A stretch of DNA of 467 bases, taken from NCBI RefSeq assembly GCF_003334255.1, contig NZ_QOWU01000234.1, one strand, 5' to 3'. This stretch comes from Escherichia coli. Its GTDB lineage: Bacteria; Pseudomonadota; Gammaproteobacteria; Enterobacterales; Enterobacteriaceae. Shown piece after piece: positions 1 through 467 of the stretch. Numbering within the stretch: position 1 is the stretch's first letter; each line of letters starts with the position of its first letter. Under the pieces are notes generated by a model, which worked only from the letters and a program-made list of their open reading frames with translations, was not told the DNA's origin and searched no databases. The position numbers and the translations under genes are program-made.

Positions 1-467
1 AGCGCACTGACCAGCGTATCCAGTTCCCAGCCGGTGCGGGCCGATACGGCCACAACCGGATGTACGGGCCGGAACAGACGGAATACCGCCTCCGTTTTTT
101 CGCGAATATTCTGTGCCTGTGCAGGAGAAGGCTGAATACCGGCCATATCCCATTCATGGCAGGGCTCCGTTTTGTCGGCCTGCGTCACCACAAACAGTAC
201 CCGCTGATGTCCCCGGTGCAGGATGTGTTGCCAGAAATACTCATCCACAGACAGGGCACGGTCATCGGCTTTAATCAGCCACAGTACCAGGTCCAGTTCA
301 GGCAGAATGTCACGGTACAGGGCCTCATACTCTGCATCCCTGTCCCGGCTCTCGCCCACCCCGGGCAGGTCAGTGATAACCATGCTGTGACCGTGGCCAC
401 TCAGACGGAAGCGCCGTACTTCCCGGGTGCCGGCGTGAACATCACTGACCGGGGTGACCTCCCCCTG
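1..467 (-). CDS. Internal fragment (both ends outside the window) of a small GTP-binding protein with a Ras-like/TRAFAC G domain (MMR_HSR1, '50S ribosome-binding GTPase'-like); resembles the YfjP/YkfA/YeeP family of cryptic-prophage/genomic-island GTPases
   Basis: Seen in sequence: the minus-strand frame whose first codon is the complement of 467..465 is open for all 155 codons. Codon choice is enterobacterial-like (frequent CTG Leu, G/C-rich third positions). G-domain motifs occur in the expected order and spacing: G2 'GTRE' (420-431), G3 'VITDLPGVGE' with DxxG at 360-371, G4 'LFVVTQADK' (171-185), G5 'VVAVSAR' with SAR at 36-44. G3 to G4 is about 60 residues and G4 to G5 about 44, typical of a G domain. 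The P-loop (G1) should lie about 20-40 nt beyond position 467. Family assignment is from recalled similarity to E. coli CP4-prophage GTPases, not from a search, so no gene symbol is given. Confidence 0.85.

Follow-up and report, generated by a model that had tools for sequence, protein, structure and literature searches.

The window, as we call the whole 467-nt stretch of Escherichia coli DNA analyzed here, is an internal part of a yeeP-like gene whose product is annotated as a "GTPase family protein" (Table 1). An intact 873-nt coding sequence (290 aa) of E. coli RM10466 contains the window with 100% identity (match to NZ_CP028381.1, 100%). The gene belongs to a CP4-44-type island, where it sits just upstream of agn43 in the neighborhood of genes for YfjI, an inovirus-Gp2-family/YagK protein, and DUF932, and its position is that of an island GTPase, with agn43 downstream and DUF932, antirestriction, RadC, and CbeA/CbtA genes also following it. 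This is a very common gene: 4,484 of the 5,426 complete (i.e., finished) RefSeq E. coli genomes that served as our count set carry between one and seven copies with at least 95% identity. It occurs in at least two contexts, being followed either by agn43 (L001 9030-12149) or placed after a gene for a hypothetical protein of 383 to 384 aa (L004 1919-2466, and L005); in L004, the next gene specifies a "dynamin family protein". The E. coli gene was also encountered at 93 to 100% identity on short contigs (L006, L031, L034, L035, and L036) of Lachnospiraceae and Collinsella metagenome-assembled genomes, most likely as a result of binning contamination rather than transfer.

The 155 residues encoded by the window match the Pfam profiles MMR_HSR1 (E = 2.4e-5) and Dynamin_N (E = 5.5e-5), and a motif scan of the 290-aa protein recovered the G1, G3, and G4 signatures, by which the product is predicted to be a GTPase. 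Matches of the full protein to the Era, Der, and MnmE models fall far below the cut-offs of these models and therefore point to a shared GTPase fold rather than to orthology with any of those proteins. Weak profile similarity over the GTPase domain also links the protein to the dynamin-like GTPases LeoA and LeoBC (PADLOC models; E = 1.8e-8 and 6.9e-5), but it has 290 aa against the roughly 560 to 600 positions of these models, and the match is limited to the P-loop region. Membership of a LeoBC/LeoA defense system is unsupported by such weak, P-loop-level matches.

The nearest known relatives are YeeP of the K-12 island CP4-44 and its paralogues YfjP (CP4-57) and YkfA (CP4-6). The sequence-only reading had described members of the family as frequent pseudogenes of cryptic prophages; the family is that of the YeeP/YfjP/YkfA island GTPases, and K-12 yeeP is indeed annotated as a pseudogene. 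The K-12 remnant resembles the window closely, with 96.6 to 97.8% DNA identity over the shared part (96.6% over 553 nt); like the gene studied here, it sits directly upstream of agn43/flu, and the window's product shares its MMR_HSR1-type GTPase domain. Unlike the full-length, intact gene of the window, K-12 yeeP lacks its N-terminus, with homology starting only at gene nucleotide 321. In the Shigella SRL island, orf46 is listed as 97% similar to YeeP and 65% similar to YfjP and likewise adjoins Ag43 (PMC6980539), and in engineered strains, yeeP has been a site for integration into the chromosome (PMC9923381). Comparison of the window's gene with four other alleles gave dN/dS values of 0.12 to 0.26, which argue against general decay; judged from these ratios, the intact GTPase gene of the window is under purifying selection.

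Table 1. Positions of the GTPase gene, its motifs, the A6 run, and the deletion endpoints discussed in the text
Feature	Window position	Strand	Gene, protein, or locus coordinates	Basis or remark
Internal part of yeeP-like "GTPase family protein" coding sequence	1..467	(-)	Gene nt 172-638, codons 58-212 of 290 (whole gene, L001 7830-8702)	
G1 P-loop, GKSGAGKS			Residues 43-50, in L001	Motif scan; outside the window
G3, DLPG	360..371	(-)	Residues 90-93	Motif scan
G4-like, TQAD	174..185	(-)	Residues 152-155	Motif scan
Codons GAA AAA ACG	93..101	(-)	E180-K181-T182	Between G4 and candidate G5 motif
A6 homopolymer (T6 on the + strand)	95..100	(-)		Base read and open reading frame scan
GGCGGTA (sense), recurrent left deletion endpoint just after it, between 84 and 83	84..90	(-)	L001 8378-8386, position 8384	11 nt downstream of the run
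Candidate G5, SAR	36..44	(-)	Residues 199-201	Motif scan; lost in any frameshift at the run
Right deletion endpoint in L041			DUF932, L001 ~15816-15819	
Right deletion endpoint in L045 and L046			DUF932, L001 ~16004	
Right deletion endpoint in L047 and L048 (also P0046, P0048)			DUF932, L001 ~16214	
Right deletion endpoint in L042 (P0063, P0152)			Antirestriction gene	

The feature under study is a run of six adenines in the coding strand of this gene. The sequence-only reading had put it at positions 94 to 99, which is one base off, the run proper occupying 95 to 100 and position 94 being a G. Its other descriptive claims were accurate: the run appears as T6 on the given strand, it lies inside an open reading frame (no stop interrupts minus-strand frame 0 anywhere in the 467 nt), and it spans Glu-Lys-Thr codons. 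Around the run, this frame reads ...AQNIREKTEAVF..., i.e., CGC (104-102), GAA (101-99), AAA (98-96), and ACG (95-93) for R-E-K-T. The run is the only stretch of six T in the window and the longest homopolymer of the whole 873-nt gene. An independent-base model with the composition of the window (60% G+C) predicts 0.048 A/T runs of six or more per 467 nt; in about 100 kb of E. coli sequence such runs occur at 0.85 per kb, which corresponds to 0.40 per 467 nt, and the A6 run is no more than chance yields in this genome scan. E. coli prefers GAA for glutamate and AAA for lysine, and all threonine codons start with A, so that a Glu-Lys-Thr tripeptide gives an A6 run about half the time.

The peptide is kept in places where the run is not. 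Another common E. coli allele, found at 1,845 places in 1,543 RefSeq genomes, specifies the same R-E-K-T with CGG GAG AAA ACG, where the adenine run is reduced to A4. The run is absent from the 20 homologues from other genera that were compared (42 to 65% identity; Citrobacter, Hafnia, Yersinia, Serratia, Salmonella, Enterobacter, Photorhabdus, Pectobacterium, Xenorhabdus, and others), in which the lysine is often retained, mostly as AAG (AAA in 7 of the 20). On these alignments, the A6 run is not conserved. In Escherichia albertii NBRC 107761 (L007, gene at 3001-3873), codons 180 to 182 read GAA AAA AAG, a T182K change that creates an in-frame A7 and, with it, a dnaX-type A-AAA-AAG heptamer in the zero frame of an intact gene.

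Length variation across strains was the check by which the sequence-only reading proposed that its suspicion of slippage at the run be judged. Tract length was scored with queries composed of 20 nt, A(n), and 20 nt, in which each 28-nt megablast seed spans the whole run and only exact tract lengths are therefore matched; engineered queries of 95 to 97 nt could not separate an indel from a single-nucleotide polymorphism in the flank, and the exact-context counts alone were kept. Exact A6 was found at 4,351 places in 3,116 of the 5,426 RefSeq genomes and A5 at 3 places in 2 genomes. BLAST DUST filtering, in a local test, masked A7 but not A6 or A5 and left the 47-nt A7 megablast query without any 28-nt seed, so that its "no match" is void and would have been returned even with a perfect target. 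A7 was consequently searched again in "distant" mode, at an E-value threshold that admits A7 but not A6 (calibration, 77.9 bits = E 3e-12), and no A7 allele with exact or one-SNP flanks was present in the 5,426 RefSeq genomes, with no record at 99% identity. The tract is thus very nearly, but not absolutely, invariant among strains: 4,351 copies of A6 against 3 of A5 and none of A7 speak for stability and come close to the absence of variation that the sequence-only reading had named as its refutation, and the rare variants show that other lengths do exist.

Both genomes that contribute A5 copies show neighboring homopolymer contractions. In FWSEC0003 (NZ_CP031916.1), the GTPase gene of the A5 assembly has seven one-base homopolymer deletions; dozens more are scattered over the island, and some 20 coding sequences within 40 kb are annotated as "frameshifted". 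In ST69 (NZ_CP102488.1), an A7 of yfjI, 2 kb upstream of the gene, is shortened to A6, and six coding sequences within about 12 kb, agn43 among them, are "frameshifted". These contractions make it probable that the A5 copies are artifacts, and the two assemblies look like carriers of uncorrected long-read homopolymer errors in a multicopy island. One-base homopolymer deletions and "frameshifted" coding sequences are dense in L040 (FWSEC0003) at 11500-24300 and in L039 (ST69) at 7800-23800, even though both genomes are RefSeq "complete"; these regions resemble unpolished long-read consensus, and pseudogene calls made there are accordingly unreliable. The FWSEC0003 island further harbors, at L040 23943-27170, a gene for a group II intron-type reverse transcriptase/maturase that splits the DUF932 gene.

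Outside RefSeq, A7 alleles were found in at least seven protein records, two of them traced to their DNA. The 243-aa proteins P0051 and P0054 contain ...NIREKNGGGIPSVPARTSGC..., in exact agreement with the product predicted for A7, and the corresponding DNA, L037 (NCTC assembly GCA_900449335.1, UGCR01000001.1) and L038 (Logan ERR2217948), shows GAAAAAAACGG. The same junction is present in P0122, P0125, P0127, P0133, and P0134. Additional frameshifts in P0122 and P0127 (A7) and in P0055 and P0137 (A5) point to error-prone data. P0133 and P0134 have a single shift each, and in L037 and L038, which represent two different haplotypes, A7 is the sole frameshifting indel in the 1 to 2 kb or so compared, which suggests that some slippage events may be genuine. 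Among the informative +1-frame proteins, 7 of 16 shift at the A6 run, the commonest single site, a share that is biased upwards by the choice of clusters with A7-bearing representatives; the run would thus be the most indel-prone point of the gene, be it in cells or in sequencers. A change of one base there predicts a protein of 213 aa (A5) or 243 aa (A7), with loss of the candidate G5 motif and of the C-terminal 109 residues. From the position of these motifs, the truncated GTPase would very probably be inactive.

These alleles bear on the earlier proposal that a +1/-1 indel at the run is an easy route to inactivation of the gene. Truncating A5 and A7 alleles do exist, to that extent as foreseen, but they are rare, and the other pseudogene alleles arose in different ways. 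K-12 yeeP is truncated at its 5' end (annotated as "missing N-terminus") and keeps the A6 run in its exact 96-nt context; decay of this remnant did not therefore proceed through the run. The defective allele of L004 has a one-base deletion beside an A4 run elsewhere in the gene, that of L005 combines a 5-bp duplication with truncation by an insertion sequence, and P0041, P0044, P0126, P0128, P0129, and others are frameshifted further downstream than the run. Internal deletions of the island are another source of defective GTPase alleles.

A stronger reading would make the run an evolutionarily relevant inactivation hot spot at which real replication slippage is a main route to pseudogenes. Its appeal is plain, since no other homopolymer of the gene is as long, alleles of A5 as well as A7 length are known, the shifted proteins cluster at the run in the proportion given above, and the two otherwise clean A7 loci lie on different haplotypes. 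However, just 3 of about 4,354 A6-type copies vary in finished genomes, all of them in error-rich assemblies; every other pseudogene allele examined was a truncation, a frameshift at another site, an insertion sequence, or a deletion; and no clade was seen to have fixed a variant. We consider this reading quite unlikely.

The internal deletions themselves show a recurrent feature close to the run. Four different deletion alleles share one left endpoint, immediately after GGCGGTA and before TT, and differ in their right endpoints (Table 1). Microhomology at the junctions amounts to about 1 to 6 nt, and the deletions occur on both A6 and A4 backgrounds (A4 in L045 and L047, at ~3031-3050). In the finished genome of strain 300081 (L169 5990-6010), agn43 breaks off precisely behind its own GGCGGTA, where it is fused to the DUF932 position used in L047. 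On that (+) strand of the 16-kb island, GGCGGTATT occurs only twice, the second time inside agn43, and both occurrences are deletion endpoints. The endpoint site falls in the loop of an imperfect palindrome, ACGGA-GGCGGTAT-TCCGT, and the candidate nick-site sequence bearing GGCGGTA is ACGGAGGCGGTATTCCGT. Junction-specific searches found neither the L047-type nor the L041-type fusion in finished RefSeq genomes; they did yield the agn43-DUF932 junction of strain 300081. A scan of metagenomes for the GGCGGTA junction pattern returned, among the matches listed, random ones, none of them related to E. coli, and the corresponding scan of viral contigs gave no related match. P0079, a 185-aa "partial" cluster that was considered as further breakpoint evidence, was set aside: its members end at many positions between 140 and 185 aa and hence reflect contig ends. 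A second recurrent junction may exist outside the window, at L001 ~8612-8615 (gene residues 261-262); P0009, P0011, and P0014 keep the GTPase sequence up to ...DRIFDTAE(SVC) and then diverge, to DUF932, a PF13990-containing protein, and a further protein.

A constant end combined with variable partners has been described for rolling-circle replicons, whose nick sites undergo illegitimate recombination. It is conceivable, if unlikely, that the GGCGGTA-TT site is a hot spot at which CP4-44-type islands undergo sequence-specific breakage or recombination, and the island-encoded inovirus-Gp2-family (YagK/YfjJ) proteins could be the putative nickase. Stalling of replication forks or an effect of the hairpin is another possible origin of the common endpoint, as are serial deletions through a 7- to 9-nt repeat. 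If confirmed, the endpoint could reveal a specific DNA-breaking activity with a part in shaping these very common E. coli islands.

Two further roles for the A6 run itself were weighed. As a phase-variable contingency tract, it would turn the GTPase, and perhaps also agn43 expression downstream of it, on and off. The gene does lie directly upstream of a phase-variable adhesin gene, and a frameshift would cost 109 residues; coding mononucleotide runs in which a +1/-1 change truncates the product are likewise a feature of contingency loci in Neisseria, Haemophilus, and Campylobacter. Unlike those loci, however, the run is short (6 nt), barely polymorphic in length (4,351 places with A6 against 3 with A5, in error-rich assemblies, and none with A7), and not conserved, being broken synonymously in 1,845 copies and missing from the other genera, and no alternating states were seen. 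Phase variation of agn43 is known to proceed via Dam and OxyR, not via a repeat tract. A switching function of the run is, in our view, highly improbable.

Scarcely credible is a role as a recoding or transcript signal (a programmed -1 frameshift, transcriptional slippage, or a + strand antisense terminator made of a hairpin and the T6), for which one could invoke the A-rich sequence, the zero-frame A-AAA-AAG of the E. albertii GAA AAA AAG, and a small hairpin before T6 on the + strand, but against which stand a zero-frame GAA AAA ACG that misfits X XXY YYZ, a -1 frame (that of the A5 allele) that stops about 32 codons after the run, and a tract that is too short, six adenines being below the length known to give appreciable transcriptional slippage. 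The likeness to the dnaX-type site (A AAA AAG) is that of an A-rich heptamer, matched in the zero frame by the E. albertii allele; the window's allele differs from it in the X XXY YYZ misfit just mentioned, and neither a conserved -1 open reading frame nor an outstanding structure (antisense-strand fold) was found. The window scan called no terminator-like sites or promoters, the + strand (antisense) folds no better than shuffled sequences (z = -0.29), and Rfam gave no match at E ≤ 1. We saw no indication that the run is phase-variable, acts in programmed frameshifting, or belongs to an antisense terminator or RNA element.

We thus favor, with a probability of roughly 85%, the interpretation of the A6 run as an ordinary by-product of codon choice that is not a conserved, phase-variable, or recoding site. 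The run would have no function of its own and would simply result, in one allele group, from Glu-Lys-Thr written in the preferred codons of E. coli (GAA AAA ACN), in a gene that is intact in the source of the window and retained by purifying selection. As the longest homopolymer, it would be the spot most prone to indels for cell polymerases and sequencing chemistries alike. A one-base change would stop the native protein after 181 residues and lead to products of 213 aa (A5) or 243 aa (A7) that lack the C-terminal third together with the candidate G5 motif, very probably with inactivation as the outcome. Fewer than 0.1% of the copies in finished genomes are variants of this kind; the majority resemble assembly artifacts, and a few could be real null mutations. 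We infer that a minority of the A5 and A7 variants in databases are true slippage mutants.

To conclude, indels at the A6 run are possible but appear not to be a significant route of decay of the gene. It seems best to regard the three RefSeq A5 copies as errors pending inspection of the reads, and "frameshifted" annotations at the run are for the most part signs of homopolymer errors in multicopy regions assembled from long reads. For a gene as widespread in E. coli islands as this one, the short adenine run would be a neutral consequence of codon choice.
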